From positions 192,001 to 256,000 of the forward strand of contig CAVTQK010000021.1 of assembly GCA_963736855.1 (NCBI GenBank): 64,000 nucleotides of DNA, read 5' to 3'. Made by a program: the position numbers and the translations under genes. Shown here piece by piece: positions 7,837-58,673 of this stretch (the stretch's first letter is position 1; each line of letters begins with the position of its first letter). This DNA comes from an uncultured delta proteobacterium. Its GTDB lineage: Bacteria > Desulfobacterota > Desulfobacteria > Desulfobacterales > UBA2156. The notes under the pieces were generated by a model. It was not told the DNA's origin and made no database searches. It saw only the letters and a list, made by a program, of their open reading frames with translations.

Positions 7837-9351
7837 CTATTTTTGAGGCGCAATAAGGATAGGGTACCGACGAAACGCCCACCAGTCAGCCAGTTCCGCC
7901 AGGGACTTTTCCATCATGTAACGGCCGTCCGCAAAGACGGCGTAATCCCCCCCGCCCCCCATGGCCGAGGCAAAGCGAATGGTGTTGGCGTAAAATAGCC
8001 AGGTGTCGCTCCATTTTTTTTCAATCGCCTCGTCGAAAGGATTTTCTTTTCCGTCAGCCAGCCCTGTTTCCCAAATTTTCTCCATCAACTGCGTGGCAAC
8101 CCGCGTATCCAAGTTGGTTTTGGACACCGTATTTTCTAACCGGTTCCAGAATCCATTGACCCAGGATCTGTCATGACAGTTCAAACAGACCGCCTGCATG
8201 GTTTCCGTGCGTTGGAGGCGTTCCTTTTCGTCGATGAGGTGCGCTGAAGCGAATTCCCCGTTGAGATCGGTGGGGAGTGGGAGCCCTTCCTTGTTTCGAA
8301 TGCTCGTAGTGTCCGGACCTTTGGGGTGAGGATGCGCATAGATCAGGCCAAAAAGCCGCCAGGGAAGACGGTTGCTCATCTGGTGGGAACGTTCGGAGAC
8401 CGCCGTACCGTCTTGATTGACCAGAAGACTGATGTGGCAAGTCGCGCAGGTGGGTGCCGTGAAATCTTTACCGATGGTCCATGGGACGCCGGTAAATTCC
8501 CACGACGACCCGTGGGATGAAAATAAGTTGCCGTGCTTGCTTGCTTCATATATCTTGAAGGCCGGCACATCAGGCCCCACGTGGCATTCTTTGCAAGTAT
8601 ACGGCTTTCGCGCCGTTTCGATGGAAAAAAGATGACGGGTGTGGCATGCCGAGCAAGCCCCTTTGCTGCCGTCGAGATTGATCCTGCCGACACCCTGGTT
8701 GGGCCATCCCCGAATGACGGGAAACTCCAGTTCGCCGGCCAGATCCGTTGTACGTTTCTCGGTTCCTTCCAACGATAGGCGGGTGCCGTGGCAGTAATAG
8801 CAGGCTTCTTCCCGGGTGCCGGCATCGGATCTTTCATGCCGGATCCGATCTTTGACGAAAGTGGGTTGACCGAGGATGCTCAGTTCGAGTTTCTGATACA
8901 ATGCGTTTTCAGCAAGATTGGCATAAGCGTGCGACATGAGGTTTTTAGAGTACTGCTCGGCTTCGACCGAATGGCAGGTCCTGCAGTCTTGCGGGCTGAC
9001 CACTACGTGAATTGTATGACCATTGTGTTCGAAGCTGTCCTTATGGGCATCAGACCTAAGACCGTGACACTCTGCGCAACCCACGAATGTCGTCTTGAGC
9101 GAATTCGGGATAGAGTCGCTGGATACTTTCCTGGATAAACCCTGGACCGAAGCGGCGTCCCCGGGTATCACCTGGGCGTGGCGGCTTTTTTTCCATTCGG
9201 CAACGATGCCGGGGTGAAGCGATGCATGGCAGTCCAGGCATTCGGAGGTCGCATCGCTGACAGGGGTTTCGGCGGAAATTATCAGGGTAGGAAAGAGAAG
9301 TACTAAGGAAAGAATCATCCATAAAAAAAATGGTTTCATAGCAGACTCCAT
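7837..9351 (-). CDS. Octaheme cytochrome c of the hydroxylamine oxidoreductase (HAO) family
   Basis: Signal peptide and eight CxxCH motifs (CLDCH, CAECH, CRTCH, CYYCH, CSACH, CKECH, CATCH, CLNCH) with HAO-type context (CHTRHLFS, CHVGPD, SKHG, APTCATCH). Confidence 0.9.
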   Translation of the reverse strand: MESAMKPFFLWMILSLVLLFPTLIISAETPVSDATSECLDCHASLHPGIVAEWKKSRHAQVIPGDAASVQGLSRKVSSDSIPNSLKTTFVGCAECHGLRSDAHKDSFEHNGHTIHVVVSPQDCRTCHSVEAEQYSKNLMSHAYANLAENALYQKLELSILGQPTFVKDRIRHERSDAGTREEACYYCHGTRLSLEGTEKRTTDLAGELEFPVIRGWPNQGVGRINLDGSKGACSACHTRHLFSIETARKPYTCKECHVGPDVPAFKIYEASKHGNLFSSHGSSWEFTGVPWTIGKDFTAPTCATCHISLLVNQDGTAVSERSHQMSNRLPWRLFGLIYAHPHPKGPDTTSIRNKEGLPLPTDLNGEFASAHLIDEKERLQRTETMQAVCLNCHDRSWVNGFWNRLENTVSKTNLDTRVATQLMEKIWETGLADGKENPFDEAIEKKWSDTWLFYANTIRFASAMGGGGDYAVFADGRYMMEKSLAELADWWAFRRYPILIAPQK

Positions 9352-9519
9352 GAATCAGGGCATCGGAATTTTTAAAGGGAACCCGAATATAGATTAGCCT
9401 GAATCAGTGCGGAATTCAAACAGATATTCCCCGGTGAAAACCCTCAGGAATTAAAGAGAGCCTCCGCTCAGGGAGGTTGCCACCCTATCCCGGCTGAATT
9501 TGTCCTGAATCAGGCAACG

Positions 9520-40047: not shown

Positions 40048-40997
40048 ATGGCTTACCGACAGGCGCTGGTAACGGGTGGTGCGGGGTTCATCGGCTCCCA
40101 TCTCGTTGAGGCCCTTCTGGAGAAAGGATGCGCGGTAAAAATTCTGGATAATCTTTCAACCGGACGCCTTGAGAACCTGGCTCATGTGCGGGAGCGCGTC
40201 AATTTTTTCCAGGGAGATATCCGGGATACCCGTCTATTGGCCGAAGCGGTCCGAGGTTGTGATGTCGTTTTTCATCAGGCGGCCATGGTCTCTGTTCCCA
40301 AGAGCGTGGAAAATCCCATTGAAAGCTTAGAAATCAACGATCTGGGGACGCTCAGGGTCCTGGAGGCGGCCCGGAAAAATGGCGTGCGGAAAGTGGTTTT
40401 GGCCAGTTCCTGTGCCGTTTACGGAAATGACTCTCAGCTTCCCAAGCATGAATCCTTGCCTCTGAAACCCATGAGTCCTTATGCGGTCCACAAGCTGATC
40501 GGGGAAGTTACGCCCGGCTTTACACCGAACTTTACGGCCTGGAAACGGCGTGTCTGCGCTATTTCAACGTCTATGGACCCAGGCAGGACCCATCCTCACC
40601 ATACTCCGGCGTCATTTCCATTTTTCTGAGCCGGGCCATAAAGAGACAGCGCCCGATCATCTTCGGAGATGGAGCCCAATACCGGGATTTTATCTATGTG
40701 AAGGACGTGGTGCGGGCAAATATGCTTGCTGCAGAATCCAGTGCTGCCTCCGGAAACGTTTATAATATCGGTACCGGTAGCTTTTTGCGCATTTTGGACC
40801 TGTGGAAAGCCATCAGGGATCGACTGGCCGTCCACATTGAACCGGAATTTGCACCGTGCCGTTTGGGAGACATCCGAGAATCGCTTGCCGATGTTCATCG
40901 TGCCCGGGAACACCTCGGGTTTGAGGCCCAATATCCTTTCGATATCGGGCTTGATGCAACCTTGAAATGGTACATGGAAAATTCAGCATTCTTATAA
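40048..40997 (+). CDS. NAD-dependent nucleotide-sugar 4-epimerase, one apparent -1 frameshift near 40507
   Basis: TGGAGFIGS, SPYAVHK in the first frame; YARLY...LRYFNVYGPRQDPSSPYSGVIS, RDFIYV in the next frame. Confidence 0.85.
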
Positions 40998-46465: not shown

Positions 46466-46495
46466 AAAAAAGGCAAAGCGGAAACCCGCCTTGCC
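46466..46495 (-). terminator. Intrinsic terminator of the Rieske/cyt b operon
   Basis: Minus strand GGCAAGGCGG-GTTT-CCGCTTTGCC-TTTTTT, 20 nt after the last stop codon. Confidence 0.75.
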
Positions 46496-46515: not shown

Positions 46516-47511
46516 TCAGCGCTTGAAATCCAACACCAGACTGCGAGTGGCCTTGGAATGGTCGGCGCCGCTATCATCAAAAACAGCGATAGCGAAGCTG
46601 AATCTCTTGCGGACGTCGAAGGCGACATCGTCTTCCTGGCCGGTGTTGAATTTTCGGTGCAGCATGACCGTCCAGCGGCCGGTGGCATACCGGCTGTCGA
46701 CCTTGACATCGAACCGTGATCCGCTCGGCTTCACGGGGAGGCGGTAGGGGATCACGTCGCCCGCCTTGAAGATAGAGTAGTCCGTGATGGGGACGGCTTC
46801 CTCCAGGAGCAAGAACCCGAGCACCGAAGGTTTGCGAGCAGGATCCTGCATGTAAAGCGGGTGGGAACCGTCGGGGGTTTCATTTTTAACATCCCCGCCG
46901 CTGCCCGCATCGTTTCTCCGGCCGGTTTCGCGGTAGGACCCGGACGGATTGCCCGCCACGGTGAGCCATCCGTCATCGGCATGTCGGTAGGGCGCCGAGC
47001 GAGCTGCCTTCCAATGCCAGAGATCGCCCTTTTCAGACGGGCTTTCCGTGGATAGGTTCCACTTGTTACGGGGCAGATCCGCCGGGCTATGACAGACGAC
47101 CGTACAGCTGCGCGATGAAAAATAGTTGATCCGTTCGATTTCAAACAGTAGCGCTATCCGGTCTTCGTCCCCCCTGAGGTGAACCCATTTTCCCCCGTCA
47201 AACTGCCACGACTCCTTGGTGACGCTGTAGGTCGGATCAGCCCAGCTGAGCAGGAAGTAAAGTTCGCTGTCCGTATAGAGGGCCCGGATCGAAACTATTT
47301 CCTTGACGTCGGCCATCTCCAGGCGGCCTGCAACAGGAACCTGACCCGGAGCGGCACGCTGCCAGGCAGGGTCATCGATCCCGGCCGGCGGTGTCTTGAC
47401 ATACCGGGCGGTTATCGTCATGACTCCGGCATCATCCGGAGAGGGTGCCGCCGCGAACACAATGGCAGCGCCCAAAAGTGCAGCGATCCCCGCGATCAAC
47501 CACTTAGACAT
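46516..47511 (-). CDS. Ethylbenzene-dehydrogenase gamma-subunit-related (EbdC/EB_dh, DOMON-like) heme-binding periplasmic protein 2
   Basis: Signal peptide; DDPAW, WADPT, EDRIALLF, SCTVVCH, DLWHWKAAR, WTVMLHRK, FAIAVFD. Confidence 0.75.
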   Translation of the reverse strand: MSKWLIAGIAALLGAAIVFAAAPSPDDAGVMTITARYVKTPPAGIDDPAWQRAAPGQVPVAGRLEMADVKEIVSIRALYTDSELYFLLSWADPTYSVTKESWQFDGGKWVHLRGDEDRIALLFEIERINYFSSRSCTVVCHSPADLPRNKWNLSTESPSEKGDLWHWKAARSAPYRHADDGWLTVAGNPSGSYRETGRRNDAGSGGDVKNETPDGSHPLYMQDPARKPSVLGFLLLEEAVPITDYSIFKAGDVIPYRLPVKPSGSRFDVKVDSRYATGRWTVMLHRKFNTGQEDDVAFDVRKRFSFAIAVFDDSGADHSKATRSLVLDFKR

Positions 47512-47531
47512 GGCCCACCTCTTTCAGTGCC

Positions 47532-48611
47532 TTAATGTTCAGGCGTCACGAAGTGCTCGATATACCCCATGACGGACAGAACCGCCACTGCGGCCAGAAC
47601 TAGTGCCGCCGCAACCATCACGCCTATGCGCTTGGAAGGACGGCGTTCGGACGTGCGGTCCAGGAAGGGCAACGCCCCAAGTAAAAATACCAGCCCCCCG
47701 GGAATGATCGCCGATCCGAGAACCATGAACGGGCCTTTAAAAATCGAGACCAGTTGGTTCAGAAACAACACCCACCACTCCGGGCGGGGAATAAACGCAG
47801 AATCGGTCGGATCGGCCGGATCACCCAAGGCAGCCGGCCATTGCCAGGCAACCAGGCCCAGTGCGATCGCCGACACAATAAGAACCGCCAGCCAGCGGTT
47901 GAAAATGGCCGGCATGAAAGGAACTTTCGGCCTTGGGGTCGCATTGGCCGACAGGGGTCCCGAAAGCCCCCGGGTCGCCATTAAATACAGGTGTAAGCCG
48001 ATCAGCAGAACGAGGGCGCAGGGCAACAGGAGGATATGCAGAACATAAAGGCGGGTCAAGGCGACGATTCCAGTCAGGGAGCCGCCGCGAAACAATTGGA
48101 CGAGAAAATCCCCGGCCAACGGAATGGAGCCGATGATGCTGAAGCGCACCTGGGTGGACCAATATCCTTTCTGGTCCCAGGGCAGCAGGTCGCCGGTGAT
48201 GATGAACAGCGGCATCAGCAGAAGAAACAACACTCCCGAGATCCAGACGAGTTGACGCGGCGACTTATAGGCTCCAACGACCAAAGCACGAAGCAGGTGA
48301 AGCCCCATGACCACCAGCAGGAGGTTCCAGGCATAGTGATGCATCCCGCGGACCACGTTTCCCAAAGGCAGGCTGAACTGAAAATAATCGACACTGTCAT
48401 AGGCTGTGCCCGGAACCGGGGTGTAGACAAAGGCCATCAATGCCCCGGAAAGGAACAGCAGGCAAATCAGCGCCAACTGCAGAGCGCCGAAGAACCGGTG
48501 CCAGCAGATGGTGTCGGCCGGTGCCTCCATCTGGAGCAGTTTTGCAAAACCTTCCCGGGCCGCTGCAACGGGCGATCTCTGTTCCGAGCCGTTAAACTCC
48601 GCTTTGGTCAT
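47532..48611 (-). CDS. petB: Cytochrome b of a Rieske/cyt b complex (unsplit b6 + subunit IV type)
   Basis: RGMHH and GLHLLR heme His, LPWDQKGYW, H-x14-H in helix D, PEWW (PEWY-like) Qo motif. Confidence 0.9.
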   Translation of the reverse strand: MTKAEFNGSEQRSPVAAAREGFAKLLQMEAPADTICWHRFFGALQLALICLLFLSGALMAFVYTPVPGTAYDSVDYFQFSLPLGNVVRGMHHYAWNLLLVVMGLHLLRALVVGAYKSPRQLVWISGVLFLLLMPLFIITGDLLPWDQKGYWSTQVRFSIIGSIPLAGDFLVQLFRGGSLTGIVALTRLYVLHILLLPCALVLLIGLHLYLMATRGLSGPLSANATPRPKVPFMPAIFNRWLAVLIVSAIALGLVAWQWPAALGDPADPTDSAFIPRPEWWVLFLNQLVSIFKGPFMVLGSAIIPGGLVFLLGALPFLDRTSERRPSKRIGVMVAAALVLAAVAVLSVMGYIEHFVTPEH

Positions 48612-48783
48612 AGCACTCCATCCCGGGTATCCGGTTGATCAAAAGGATAGAAAAACAAGCTACACACCGTCAGACCAGGCGCGCGGCATTTTGGAAAGCG
48701 CAGCATATTTAACGATATGTGAGCATTCCCAAACGCCGCGCAACGTCGGATCACATCTGGAGGCGCTATTTTTTAGCCTCTTG

Positions 48784-49774
48784 CTATTTCTTGAACTCGA
48801 GGGTCAAGACCTCTGAATCATACGAATCATGGTCCTTGGAGTCGTCGAACAACGCCATGGCGAAGCTGTATTTCTTCGTGGGATTAAAAGCCACATCGTC
48901 ATCGTGTCCCGGTGTCTATCTTGCGGGAGAGAATTACCGTCCATGTGCCGTCGGCATAACGGCTGACGGCCTTGATGTCAGCGAACGACCCTTCCGCGGC
49001 TACCGGCATCCTGAAAGTGACGACGTCGCCGGCCTTGAAGACTGAATAGTCGGTGATTTCAACTGCGTCCGCCGCCAGCAGGATGCCGTTCTTGCCGAAT
49101 TTCTTGCCCGGGGCAAGCATGTACATGGGTTTGGACTTGTCAGTGGTCATGTTTTGCTTGTCGCCGCCCTTGCCGTCATCCCCCTTACGGCCGCCCTTGG
49201 TGTCGCTGATTTTGGCCAGGTAGCCGTCATCGGCGTAGCCGGCAGGGTCGGAGCGGGCCGCCTTCCAGTGCCACAGGTCGCCTTTCTCGGCATCGGTCGC
49301 GGTCCCGAACTTGCCCTCCTTGGCGTTGGGCGCTCCCGGCGGGACGTGGCACGTCACCGCGCAGCCCTTGGTGGCGAAGTTGTTGATGCGGTTGATCTCG
49401 AACAGAAGCGAAATCCGGTCCTCGTCGCCCTTCAAGTGGGTCCAGGCCTTCCCGTCGAACTTCCAGGCCTCCTTGGTCATGCTCTGGGTGGCATCTTTCC
49501 AGTTGAACCAAAGGTAGATTTCATTGTCCGTAAAGACGGCTTTGGTGTTCACAGCCGTTTTTTTGCCCGCGAATATCTCCTTGCCGTCGAAGGGCACCTC
49601 GAGCGCCTTGATTTTCACCCACACGGGGTCATCCAGACCGGTGGGGGCGGCTTTCGAGTAAGCGGCGGTCAAGGTCTGTTTGGCGGCCCCAGTGACGTTG
49701 TTTGAGAAAAAAACCAAGCCAAGTACGCTCAGCAGGACACACGTCAGGACACCCAGTTTCATTGGTTTCTGCAT
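48784..49774 (-). CDS. EbdC/EB_dh-related heme-binding periplasmic protein 1, one apparent +1 frameshift near 48908
   Basis: Paralog of 46516 gene (EDRISLLF, GCAVTCH, DLWHWKAAR). Removing one G restores DTGHDDDVAFNPTKKYSFAMALFDD...LEFKK*. Confidence 0.75.
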
Positions 49775-49808
49775 CGAATACCTCCTTCGGCCCGATGCCG
49801 GGCGCGGG

Positions 49809-50321
49809 TTAAAGTGTAATTTGAACCAACAGCTTGCCCTCTTCTACCTTGTGCGGAAGGAGCGAAAGCGGCTTTTTCGGCGGTCCGGATGCCGGTTGTC
49901 CTTCCGGGTCGAACCGGCCGGTGTGGCAAGGGCACTCGAACATTCGGGTGTCTTTTCTCCAGATGACATTGCAGGCCAGATGCGAACAGATTGAAGAAAA
50001 GACTTTGACGCCGTGCTGGGCATCGGCCTTGGCCCAGACAAACCCCCGCTGTGGGAGGTCAACCCAGCCGTCCTTCACCATGAACTCAAAGGACAGCATG
50101 CTGAAATCATTCGGGGTCAGCATGTCTGCTTTGCCGAAATCGACCCATTTGCCGACGCCTTTTTTAAGAGAGGGGATAACAATGGTCGACACCATGGGGA
50201 TGGCCGCCAGAACGGCCGCGCCGCCTGCTAGAACAGAAGTCGTGATGAAGGTGCGGCGCGAAATGTTGAACTGATTTTCCACCGTGGGTTTTTGAGGAAG
50301 GGTGAGAGGGTTCTCGGCCAT
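49809..50321 (-). CDS. Rieske [2Fe-2S] protein with Tat signal anchor
   Basis: SRRTFI twin-arginine motif, CSHLAC and CPCHTG boxes, SGPP. Confidence 0.92.
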   Translation of the reverse strand: MAENPLTLPQKPTVENQFNISRRTFITTSVLAGGAAVLAAIPMVSTIVIPSLKKGVGKWVDFGKADMLTPNDFSMLSFEFMVKDGWVDLPQRGFVWAKADAQHGVKVFSSICSHLACNVIWRKDTRMFECPCHTGRFDPEGQPASGPPKKPLSLLPHKVEEGKLLVQITL

Positions 50322-50790: not shown

Positions 50791-53463
50791 TCAGGCGGCT
50801 TTCTCGATCCTCACGGCGCAAATTTTGTATTCGGGGATTTTCGACACGGGATCAAGCGCACCAATGGTTAACTTGTTCACCGCCGCTTCATAGAAATGGA
50901 ACGGCACAAAAGCAACGCCACGATCAGTAGTGTCCGAAACCAGAGTCTTTATTCTCAATCTTCCCCGTCTTGAGACGATATTGACGTATTCTCCGCTCGC
51001 AACACTCAGCGCCTTCGCGTCCTCCACATTGATCTCCGCCAATGCTTCGGGATAAAGACGATTCAAAGCGGTTCCTTTGCGACTCATCGTTCCCGTATGA
51101 TAATGCTGATGCACCCGCCCTGTCGTCAAAACGAACGGATATTCCGCATCGGGAAGCTCGGCGGGCGCTTTATAATCGATGGCGAAAAACGATCCTTTTC
51201 CCTTGGTAAAGCCTTTCATGTGCAGGACTGGAGTGCCTGGATGTTCCAGTGTTGGACACGGCCATGTCAAGCTTTCTTGATCAAGCCGATCATAAGTAAT
51301 ACCGCCATAACTTGGGGTAAGAGCATTGATTTCCGTCATGATTGCGGAGGGGTCCGCATAGTCCATCTCATATCCCATTTCCTTGGCAATGGCGGTGATA
51401 ATACGATGATCTTCCCAGGCTTCTCCGGGAGCATCCAATGCCTTGCGCACCCGCAACACCTTGCGCTCGGTGTTCGAGAAGGTCCCCTCCTTTTCAGCAA
51501 AACACGCACTGGGGAGAACCACGTCGGCAAGCTTGGCCGTCTCCGTTAAAAAAATGTCCTGCACAACAAGGAAATCCAATGCCGACAGGCTCTTTTCAAC
51601 ATGGTGCATATCGGCATCGCTCAGCATCGGGTTTTCGCCCATGATGTACAAGGCCTTAATGCCTTTCCCGGCTGCCGGAACCATCTCGGTAACGGTCATG
51701 CCAACTTTTCCCGGGAGTGAGGGCACCTTCCAGGCTTTGGCGAATTTGTCTCGTATGGCAGCATCGGTTACGGCCTGATATCCTGAAAAAACATTGGGCA
51801 AGCCGCCCATATCACATGCGCCCTGAACGTTGTTTTGGCCGCGAAGCGGATTGACACCGCCGCCCGCAACCCCGACATTTCCGCAGAGCATTGCCAAGGC
51901 GGCAAGAGACTTTACGTTGTCCGTGCCGGTGGTATGCTGGGTTATACCCATAGTGTATAGAATCGACCCGGGTTTTTCTGTTCCATACAACCGCGCCGCG
52001 GCAATCATAGCTTCTGCCGGAATACCCGTAATGCCGGACACATAATCAGGCGTATATTTAGCGACACACTGCTTGAGTTCTTCATAACCGGTTGTACGCT
52101 CATCAATGTAGCTCTGTGCTTGAAGGTTCTCATTGATGATTACATTCATAAAACCGTTTATCCAGGCCACATCTGTGCCGATTCTCTGACGCAGCCATAG
52201 ATGGCAAATATCCACCAGCTTGATCCTTCTCGGATCGACGACAATCAGCTTGGCACCGTTCTTCGTGACGGCTTCATGAATGTAGTTGGCAATAATAGGA
52301 TGGTTTGACGTGGTATTGGTACCGGTAATGAGAATGACCTTTGACTTCAATACATCCTGGAAGGGATTGGTCATCGCTCCGCTTCCAAACGTGGCGGCAA
52401 GCCCTGCCACCGTTGAGGAGTGTCAGAGACGGGCGCAGTGATCCACATTGTTGGTGCCGATCACCGCGCGCATGAATTTCTGAAACAGATAATTTTCTTC
52501 GTTGGTGCATCGAGCAGAAGAAAAACCCCCGATGGCGTCGGGACCATGATCGCTTTTGATCTGGCTGAACCTTCTGGCGATCAGGTCAAGGGCTTCATCC
52601 CAGCTGGCTGATTCGAACTGACCATTCCTCTTGATAAGCGGCGTGGTCAGTCGCTGATCACTAGCGATGAATTCATAGCCGAATCGGCCTTTGACGCACA
52701 GGCTGCCCTTATTGACGGCCACATCGCTCTTTCCGACCACACTCGCCACCCGATTGTCGAGAACATTGAGTTCGATTTGACACCCGCAACCACAATAGGT
52801 GCAGGTGGTGACCACCTTTTTGGTGACGAACCCTCTCGCCTTGAGTGGGCTGAGGTTCTCGGTCAGCGCCCCGGTCGGACAAACCTGCAAACATTCTCCG
52901 CAAGACACGCACTTCTCGGGATCCACCGTCAGTTTCAGCACCCCATCGGTATCGACAAATTCCAGCGCCCCCACACCCTTGATTTCTCGACAGGCGGAGG
53001 CGCAACGCTGGCAAAAGACGCAACGATCGCGCCAGTATTTAATCAAGGGAGTGGCATAGGCCACCTCAACCCTCTCCTTGGGCTCCTCATAGGCATCTGC
53101 TCTGACTCCTAATTCGAACACCAGATCCTGCAGCTTACAGGCACCGGCCTTGTCGCAGATCGGGCAATCCAGGGGATGATGGGCCAAGAGGTGCTGCAAG
53201 GATTTCCGCCGCATATCGGCGAGCATGTCCGAATTGGTCGCCACCGCCATACCGTCGGCCACCGAAGTCTTGCAGGCTTCCACCGGGGTGTCTTTGCCTT
53301 CGACTTCGACCACGCAGAGTTTGCAGGAGCCTATTGGATTCAATCGTTCATGGTAGCATAGGGTCGGTATCTTGATCCCCGCGTTCTTGGCCGCTTGCAG
53401 AATTGTGCTATCCTGCTGAGCGATGACTTCGTGACCGTCAATTGTCAACTTGACTGTGCTCAT
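50791..53463 (-). CDS. fdhA: Selenocysteine-containing formate dehydrogenase alpha subunit (Mo/W-bisPGD) with NuoG-like N-terminal Fe-S module, 890 aa
   Basis: The two ORFs are in the same frame, separated only by TGA at 52423-52425 in DHCARL-U-HSSTVAGLA. IPTLC, HPLDCPICDKAGAC, 2x CxxCxxC, CTYCGCGC, LRGQNNVQG, PEYK. No signal peptide. Confidence 0.92.
52393..52411 (-). promoter_or_regulatory. Bacterial SECIS hairpin
   Basis: GGTGGCA-GGGCT-TGCCGCC stem-loop beginning 11 nt after the UGA, same geometry as the E. coli fdhF SECIS. Confidence 0.8.
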
Positions 53464-56655: not shown

Positions 56656-58423
56656 TCATATCAAGGAAGTAAATAAGTAGTAGCCGAGGATGACGACGCC
56701 GCCAATCAGCATCGTCGCCGCATAATTCCGAACCAGTCCGCTGGCGGTAACGCGGATCACGCCCGCCAGGCCAATGAAAAACTGAGCGACACCGTTAACC
56801 AACCCATCGATCGCACGGACATCGATAATCCGCGCGAGAAAACCGGAGAAGAACAGAGTGAAGCGGGTGAACCAGGTATCGTAAATGTTGCCCAAATAGC
56901 TATCGCTCGAAGCCAGCGGCTTTCTCGCGATCCACATGAATACCCGGCTTCCCTTGCGGTATACCCAATCGGTATCGATGCTGATGGTGGGTTCCGGATC
57001 GAGCTTTTTGAGCAGCATGAAAAAGCCCAGACCGGTGAACAGGAGGATACCCAAGGCGCTGGTTACATGATCACCGGTATAAGGTTCGAAGTGCACCGGA
57101 AAGGGAAGCAGGTTGTACAGCGGCCCGGGAAGCACACCGATCCCGATGCAAAAGAAGGCCGCCATGCCCATGGCCAGCAGCATATTAAGCGGCGGTTCCT
57201 TGGCTTCCAACCCGGAATCTTTACCAAAAAACATGTAGTAGGGAAGCTTCAAACCCGTGTGCAGGAATGTACCGGATGAGGCCATGGTCAGCAGTAGGGC
57301 CACCATCGGCCGATGGTCATGAGTGGCGCCGGAAACCACCATCGACTTGGTGACAAATCCACTGAACAAGGGGAAGGCCGAGATCGCAAACCCGCCGATC
57401 ATATAGAGCACCAACGTGATCGGCATGGTTCGGTACAAGCCTCCCAGTTCGGTGAGTTTCCTGCGCCCTGTCATTTCGATCACCGCGCCGGCTCCCATAA
57501 AAAGGAGGCCCTTATAGAGGATGTGGGCGAAGGCGTGGGACACCGAACCGTTCAGGGACATCTCCGTGCCGATCCCGACTCCGGCCACCATGTACCCGAC
57601 CTGACTGACTATGTGGTACGCCAGCAACCGTCTGCAGTCGTTTTCCAGCACCGCGTAAACAACCCCGTACAGGGCCATGATCGTTCCCAGATACACCAGC
57701 AGTTCAGTGCCTGGGAAAGACCCGCACCAAAACGTACACAGCCGTTTTGGTGGTGAATGCCGACATGAACACCGATCCGGTTACGGTCCCTTCCGGATAG
57801 GCATCGGTCAGCCAGGCGTGCAGCGGTGGCACCGCGGCATTTATAATAACCCCCACCAGCATCAGGTAGAAGGCCAGGCTGCCGTCTTGATCGAGAGGGC
57901 CCACCAGCATCGACTTGGTGCTGAGATAGTGGAGGATAATCCCTCCAAGCAGACACACACCGCCGAAGGTGTGCACCAGCAGGTACCGGTAACCGGCCCG
58001 GATCGCATCAGGTTCACGCCGGGCAAACACCAGATAGGCGGAAGCGAAGGCCATCAGTTCCCAGAATACGAACAGGGTCAAGTAATCCCCGGCGAACGTC
58101 ACCCCCAGCGCCCCTCCCACGTACAGGAAAGCGGCCACGTGCTGGCCCTGATCGTTCACGTGCAGGGCATACACGATGCCGATGAACGACATAATGGCGA
58201 AGACCCAGCCGAACACGATGCTGAGCTTGTCCACGGCACCGAAGGTCAGCACCATGCCAAGAAAGTCCCAGGACCAGAAGGTGCCCGCGGACATGGCGAA
58301 CACAGAAGCGACCCCGAGCAGGGGGATCAGCATCAGATAGGCTTTCCGCACCTTCCCGCGCAGAAATGGGATGAGAGCTGCTCCGAAAATGTAGAATACG
58401 GACGGGTGGAACCAATCAGTCAT
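56656..58423 (-). CDS. Mrp/NuoL-type antiporter-like subunit with NuoL-like C-terminal tail, one apparent +1 frameshift near 57712
   Basis: [35 protein letters not shown]-terminal [11 protein letters not shown]...SGLVRNYA. Removing one C gives [11 protein letters not shown]. Confidence 0.8.
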
Positions 58424-58673
58424 TGTAGTAATCCTCGCCCCGCATGACGCCGCACTGGTGGCCGATGAATTTAGAGACCAGAACGATAACAGCGCAGGCC
58501 ACAAACCCGTACAAGGCGCCCCATCCGGGCATCTTATCCCAGATATACATGGCATGCTCCCGGTGAACCAGAAAGTCCGCTACTACTGTAAGCCCCAGAG
58601 CCACGTAACTGAGCTTTTTCAAAGTGCCGGCATTTGCTGGGTTGCCTATGTAAAGGACGACCCTCTTGATCAT
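58416..58673 (-). CDS. Small two-TM membrane protein of the complex I-like operon
   Basis: 85 aa, PGWGALYGFVAC, MRGEDYY. Overlaps both neighbours. Confidence 0.75.
   Translation of the reverse strand: MIKRVVLYIGNPANAGTLKKLSYVALGLTVVADFLVHREHAMYIWDKMPGWGALYGFVACAVIVLVSKFIGHQCGVMRGEDYYND

Follow-up and report, generated by a model that had tools for sequence, protein, structure and literature searches.

Which protein accepts electrons from a Rieske/cytochrome b complex when proteins of another fold stand at the usual place of cytochrome c1 or f? This question is raised by a four-gene cassette on the reverse strand, at positions 46516-50321, of a 64,000-nucleotide stretch (hereafter the window) from an uncultured delta proteobacterium (Desulfobacterales; UBA2156; assembly GCA_963736855.1, contig CAVTQK010000021.1, positions 192,001 to 256,000). 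The cassette encodes a Rieske protein, a cytochrome b and two paralogous EB_dh-fold proteins, here called EA and EB, which the original prediction, made from the DNA letters, had read as EbdC-like heme acceptors in a complex lacking any cytochrome c. We propose, with moderate confidence, that EA and EB likely bind heme c at a Cys-x3-Cys-His motif and likely replace cytochrome c1 or f as periplasmic acceptors in a predicted menaquinol-oxidising complex. Gene content, conservation, motifs and predicted fold form the observed part of this reading.

EB_dh-Fold Proteins With an Invariant Cys-x3-Cys-His Motif

EA (48784-49774, reverse strand; assigned by Pfam, alignment and a model of an orthologue) and EB (46516-47511, reverse strand; 331 amino acids; assigned by Pfam and a model) are predicted to be secreted, each with a single, N-terminal hydrophobic stretch. 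A hidden Markov model (HMM) search with PF09459 placed both over the cut-off of 33 bits, at 144 and 161 bits, and together with the fold models this bore out the claim of two paralogous secreted EB_dh/DOMON-like proteins. EA and EB share about 47-50% identity and form separate clades. The EB model (pLDDT, the predicted score for the local distance difference test, 91.9) matched 2ivf_C with Z 20.8 and a root-mean-square deviation (rmsd) of 2.2 over 193 aligned residues, and 7b04_C with Z 20.4. Modelling of an intact EA orthologue (pLDDT 81.8, low in the motif region) likewise retrieved 2ivf_C (Z 20.8, rmsd 2.2, 191 aligned). A single-sequence search of the PDB gave no significant match, whereas profile and fold searches did, and the clusters retrieved from the ESM Atlas were all EB_dh and carried no functional assignment.

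The statement that the cassette has no cytochrome c gene held in one respect, as canonical CxxCH was not found in any of the four genes. It probably fails in substance, because EA and EB both carry Cys-x3-Cys-His: CAVTCH at residues 138-143 of EA (49346-49363, reverse strand) and CTVVCH at residues 136-141 of EB (47089-47106, reverse strand), in each case the sole cysteines outside the signal peptide. Conservation was counted in loci obtained from the best 80 of 134 confirmed relatives in a GTDB scan, giving 72 loci whose record titles are almost all Desulfobacterota or deltaproteobacterial metagenome-assembled genomes. The motif is present in all 135 full-length copies from these loci, in 121 of 121 close sequences and in 134 of the 138 distant domains that were scored (50%-identity representatives comprising 209 domains, 71 of which could not be scored). 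By chance it arises 13 times in the 949,313 residues of the host genome's long open reading frames (ORFs), or 0.0045 times per 330 amino acids. In the models it closes a helix in the loop preceding the W-x-W strand.

Published work has handled Cys-x3-Cys-His as a motif for heme c (PMC10734462; bioRxiv 2025.05.29.656830; these and the other papers cited here are drawn on from excerpts). The host genome encodes CcsB over its cut-off, adjoining a ResB-sized gene, as in System II maturation. EA and EB thus show what marks a c-type cytochrome in sequence: secretion, a Cys-xn-Cys-His motif (here of non-canonical n=3) and a host with a maturation system.

An alternative is that both proteins are b-type like EbdC or CbsA, with the cysteine pair forming a disulfide and heme b held noncovalently. 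Their fold matches that of heme b proteins, EbdC holds heme b by Met/Lys (PMC8840923), and Lys320, invariant in EB, lies close to the C-terminal Lys of NxrC in the alignment. In many distant relatives a Met is retained some 12 residues ahead of the W-x-W strand, in the loop that we take to be the position of the EbdC Met ligand. However, the EA/EB clade has no conserved Met in this loop, both proteins missed the TIGR03477 cut-off of 169.85 bits (31 and 38 bits), and relatives sharing some 30% identity keep an invariant His immediately behind the second Cys, as heme c motifs do; cytochrome c maturation genes are also present in the host. Given the missed cut-off, the absent Met and the invariant Cys-x3-Cys-His, the EbdC-type heme b acceptors of the original prediction are probably not what these proteins are. 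They are likely non-canonical c-type rather than EbdC-like b-type cytochromes, and we regard the noncovalent alternative as quite unlikely.

The two paralogues differ in the predicted distal-ligand loop near the C terminus. Among the 135 copies, 68 read H-S-K, 64 D/N-S-Y and one H-S-Y, and two could not be parsed. His318 and Lys320 are invariant in EB, whereas EA has D/N-S-Y there (D-S-Y in the window) with no conserved His or Lys; in an alignment of 116 sequences that takes in distant relatives, conservation of His318 reaches 90% or more. In an HMM alignment with the NxrC tail, the NxrC Arg pairs with His318 and the NxrC Lys falls two residues beyond Lys320, so that either residue could be the sixth ligand of the EB heme.

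A Rieske/Cytochrome b Core of Predicted Low Potential

The Rieske [2Fe-2S] subunit (49809-50321, reverse strand; 170 amino acids; Pfam and motifs) has a twin-arginine translocation (Tat)-like anchor with the motif SRRTF, box 1 CSHLAC and box 2 CPCHTGRF. Gly and Phe stand in box 2 where Ser and Tyr are usual; Ser is replaced by Gly in all 53 Rieske boxes of complete cassettes, and Tyr is retained in two of the 53. Since these are the two tuning positions by which low-potential Rieske proteins are recognised (PMC3509893; PMC12954380), the cluster is predicted to lie under +200 mV. The low potential deduced earlier from this box is thus upheld as a prediction, and it fits the menaquinone of deltaproteobacteria (PMC4122944).

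Cytochrome b (47532-48611, reverse strand; 359 amino acids; Pfam and motifs) is of the fused b6 plus subunit IV type, with seven hydrophobic helices. Its heme-ligand histidines are His91/His105 and His192/His207, the helix D pair having x14 spacing, and the Qo motif PEWW is at 277; all four histidines and PEWW are invariant in the 53 complete sets, and the Rieske gene lies 5' of cytochrome b in every one. Tat-anchored Rieske with both boxes, four histidines and a Qo motif together identify a Rieske/cytochrome b complex, and Pfam matches and motif positions agree with the Tat-Rieske and the H-x14-H, PEWW cytochrome b first described here. It is not a cytochrome bc1 proper: no c1 family match was obtained, there are seven rather than eight helices, and the spacing is x14, not H-x13-H. 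Nor is it a cytochrome b6f or b6c complex, as b6 and IV are fused and the heme ci motif CxGG was not found in the window's cytochrome b, which has RFFG at the corresponding place.

Conservation and Neighborhood of the Cassette

A gene-neighborhood survey, as had been suggested with the original prediction, found the intact four-gene cassette in 53 of the 72 GTDB loci, in the order Rieske, EA, cytochrome b, EB (36 loci) or Rieske, EA, EB, cytochrome b (17 loci). The remaining 19 run into contig ends, are broken or are variants, and three of them show the EB_dh gene alone. A Rieske or cytochrome b gene adjoins the EB_dh gene in 69/72 GTDB and 73/78 metagenome loci. The 78 metagenome loci derive from a narrower alignment, the broad one being too divergent for a locus scan, and their matches are mostly from the same clade, so that the range beyond Desulfobacterota is not fixed by them. 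Conservation across loci extends to the DOMON-like proteins at the usual place of c1 or f. Among 201 genomes of the host's order, 24 have an EB_dh match of the cassette kind, 17 are of the cassette type and 70 have some cytochrome b.

Variants of this arrangement occur. One-subunit cassettes exist (L054, L131), and in five loci a split b6 (CxGG) plus IV (PEWY) cassette is followed by a related EB_dh subunit (L045, L054, L092, L114, L116). In three loci (L045, L054, L092) two Rieske/cytochrome b cassettes follow each other, first a split b6 (CxGG) plus IV set with one Cys-x3-Cys-His subunit and then the fused type; such tandems were seen in part in L034, L050, L167 and L169.

No fifth conserved gene was found among the neighbor clusters of the 72 loci. 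A CxxCH protein passed the filter in only two of them, one of these being a sensor kinase. A two-component pair lies directly upstream in 23 of the 47 loci with enough flank. A link of the cassette to the upstream nuo and fdhA genes was considered and rejected, FdhA-like matches occurring in 2/72 loci and NuoN in none. In the window the cassette ends at a terminator-like hairpin of 10 pairs plus a T run (46472-46495, reverse strand; consensus match only).

The Frameshift in EA

EA is broken in the window at about 48908-48910: its ORF ends at 48899, and the last 41 codons run in another frame to 48784. Orthologous EA genes are intact (327-338 amino acids), and relative to all seven aligned orthologues the window has one extra base. 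This difference could be real, the cassette decaying in the source strain, as the extra base deletes the last 41 residues of EA and no sequencing run examined represents the source strain at this site. Yet the 41 downstream codons remain conserved, the extra base falls in a short homopolymer, and ccoN and a NuoL-like gene are split in the same assembly. A 96-97% identical contig, found when contigs of four sequencing runs were also compared, is 131 bases shorter across the EA/spacer stretch; if its spacer has the usual length, the difference would equal a 130-bp insert plus one base. Real decay therefore appears rather doubtful, and the frameshift is likely an assembly error.

Genes in two frames in this assembly are a NuoL/Mrp-like gene (56656-58555, reverse strand), an epimerase gene (40048-40997, forward strand) and ccoN (contig C15, 783017-784211), each of which points to indel errors. 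The insert itself is a hairpin-rich segment of about 130 bp in the spacer between EA and cytochrome b (approximate ends 48645-48775), shared only by L023 among the seven orthologous loci aligned. It is single-copy in the host genome, shares 80% identity with the L023 spacer and is matched by several unrelated contigs from two sequencing runs, as would be expected of a small repeat element.

A Proposed Complex and Its Electron Sink

If the favored reading is correct, the cassette would form a Q-cycle complex that oxidises menaquinol at the PEWW site and sends one electron through hemes bL and bH, the other through the low-potential Rieske cluster to the EB and EA hemes. The EB heme would be bound by the His of Cys-x3-Cys-His with His318 or Lys320 as sixth ligand; the EA heme may be Tyr-ligated or five-coordinate, since no conserved His or Lys is present in its tail. 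Electrons would then exit to a periplasmic sink. This may be a cbb3-like oxidase that removes O2 or serves microaerobic respiration, or else an HAO-like octaheme. The genome of the host, a sulfate-reducing bacterium, has dsrA, one cytochrome b and, by motif, one Rieske; it also contains three HAO-like multihemes and two ccoNO sets of cbb3-like type, which fall under the curated cut-off. A cbb3-like oxidase in the host seems the most plausible sink, a tentative choice that we would place short of an even chance.

CcoN-like oxidases, assigned to this class from the length of their frames and from E-values (those checked all fell under the TIGR00780 cut-off), occur in 14 of the 17 cassette genomes against 64 of the 184 others; a fifteenth cassette genome has a partial match and two have none. 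This co-occurrence is only a hint, because kin are not independent. HAO-like multihemes were present in five of five cassette genomes, a count with no cassette-free control and hence not taken as support. A diheme peroxidase was considered as the sink and dropped, with none in the five genomes tested.

Several observations weigh against the proposed complex. EA and EB resemble secreted proteins with a cleavable signal and lack a second anchor, unlike c1 and f, and so may not be tightly bound subunits; the host genome encodes further mono- and multiheme cytochromes c that could be the acceptor; and EA is frameshifted in the source assembly. Cassette genomes G015 and G139 (97% complete) have no heme-copper oxidase match, and 64 of the 78 genomes with a CcoN-like oxidase lack the cassette. 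Moreover, in 7 of the 40 long relatives scanned the EB_dh domain is the outside sensor domain of a kinase or cyclase, which means that carrying electrons is not its role in every case.

Some of these points would suit a different role for EA, as a catalytic or ligand-binding heme (open or Tyr-ligated) fed by EB, which would make the cassette a self-contained menaquinol-driven reductase of O2, peroxide, NO or hydroxylamine and not a cytochrome c reductase. The separate clades with their fixed, different tails, the two cassette genomes lacking a heme-copper oxidase, the missing diheme peroxidase and the upstream two-component pair, which fits an inducible stress module, are all in line with such a role. 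But active-site residues for a catalytic EA were not identified, one-subunit cassettes occur, and tandem EB_dh repeats in other proteins suit an electron wire; we consider a catalytic EA improbable. A broader conjecture is that EA and EB represent a structural class of cytochrome c so far overlooked, with heme c on Cys-x3-Cys-His in a DOMON-like beta-sandwich, and that in sulfate reducers their duplicated pair, one electron-transfer and one open-site heme, makes of the Rieske/cytochrome b complex a menaquinol reductase that pumps protons and acts on O2 or nitrogen oxides, the same domain serving kinases as a redox sensor; it is speculative and at present seems doubtful.

The EB_dh proteins might instead serve a periplasmic type II molybdoenzyme, encoded at another site, as its gamma subunits and be wired to the core as in haloarchaeal Nar clusters (PMC3509893). 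The closest solved structures are such gamma subunits, and an fdhA-like gene lies upstream of the window's cassette. However, a TIGR03479 search found no type II molybdoenzyme at E<=1e-30 in the host genome, which is 100% complete, and none over the cut-off in the five genomes tested, while the upstream enzyme is of NuoG/FdhA type, with FdhA-like genes near only the two loci noted above. This origin is very improbable, and an acceptor role in the predicted complex remains our preferred reading of EA and EB.

Other Genes and EB_dh Domains Outside the Cassette

An in-frame TGA (52423-52425), in what we take to be a selenocysteine context, interrupts the NuoG/FdhA-type formate dehydrogenase gene of the window (50791-53463, reverse strand); a frameshift was ruled out as the cause of the split. 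The gene lies directly downstream of a nuoCD-H-I-J-K/Mrp-like/M-N cluster, which suggests a formate-coupled complex I-like module. An HAO-like octaheme cytochrome c is encoded at 7840-9354 (reverse strand). Ahead of the second cbb3-like ccoNO set (L104, 4490-10017; contig C17, about 217500-223000) lie genes for a QrcA-like tetraheme protein and for a membrane protein, a candidate alternative route from quinol to oxidase.

EB_dh domains with Cys-x3-Cys-His also form the N-terminal part of PAS, histidine kinase and GGDEF proteins (P0166, P0176, P0192, P0201, P0223, P0244, P0255, P0273), where they are candidate heme-based redox or gas sensors. In 3 of the 40 long relatives an EB_dh subunit is fused to cytochrome b561 (weak Pfam matches, under the cut-off). 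Large proteins with two or three Cys-x3-Cys-His EB_dh repeats, some with secretion tails (P0134, P0135, P0146, P0147, P0151), are candidate multiheme wires overlooked by CxxCH scans.

Comparison With Known Systems

Rieske/cytochrome b complexes are known to differ in their acceptor subunit (PMC3062577; PMC5600118), which has been recruited several times, and the cassette would add a version with a likely covalent heme in a beta-sandwich. Such a version is invisible to CxxCH counts, and the cassette is found in about 8% of the sampled genomes of the order (17/201). EA and EB offer an expressible target for studying both the use of a high-potential chain by sulfate reducers and the maturation by System II of Cys-x3-Cys-His in an all-beta fold. 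The literature surveyed gave no account of the four-gene cassette or of Cys-x3-Cys-His in EB_dh proteins, though subscription papers and figures may hold one. The idea of an EB_dh acceptor is nonetheless less unprecedented than the original prediction had rated it: in the Sulfolobales cbsAB/soxNL complex, CbsA has been presented as the counterpart of cytochrome c1 (PMC5461723), and PF09459 appears 14 times in the operon key of Fig. S1 of the cytochrome b survey PMC5600118 (key and legend only), which states that it did not address the acceptors of its new subfamilies.

PF09459 was over the cut-off in the Sulfolobus acidocaldarius control, a match that is presumably CbsA, and it also gave matches in the Haloferax volcanii control. 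The Sulfolobales cytochrome ba complex CbsAB-SoxLN likewise joins a Rieske protein and cytochrome b to a heme protein other than c1, but it is archaeal and has one b-type acceptor at +400 mV (PMC13741234, where FoxC is modelled on EbdC) and the Qo motif PPWF (PMC4122944), whereas the window's cassette has PEWW, two paralogues with Cys-x3-Cys-His and an anaerobic bacterial host. The haloarchaeal Rieske/cytochrome b-Nar cluster shares the low-potential Gly/Phe Rieske and the lack of a cytochrome c gene, and a periplasmic cytochrome b has been proposed as its shuttle (PMC3509893). It differs in that the window's host has no match to Nar or another type II molybdoenzyme and that the acceptors here carry a motif of covalent-heme type.

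EbdC and NxrC (PF09459; 2IVF_C and 7B04_C) are secreted and have the same beta-sandwich fold as EA and EB (Z 20.2-20.8, rmsd 2.2-2.5, 191-204 residues). In contrast to them, EA and EB, at 18-23% identity, are about 100 residues longer than EbdC, contain the inserted Cys-x3-Cys-His helix, lack a Met conserved in the clade and have no alpha/beta partner. The core also resembles the menaquinol-oxidising b6-like complexes of Firmicutes and Deltaproteobacteria, with which it shares H-x14-H, seven helices and a low-potential Rieske; a seven-helix unsplit cytochrome b has been noted for deltaproteobacteria (PMC3509893). Unlike those complexes, the cassette has no class I cytochrome c, c1, f or CxxCH multiheme and its fused cytochrome b is without CxGG, and EA and EB would take the acceptor's place.

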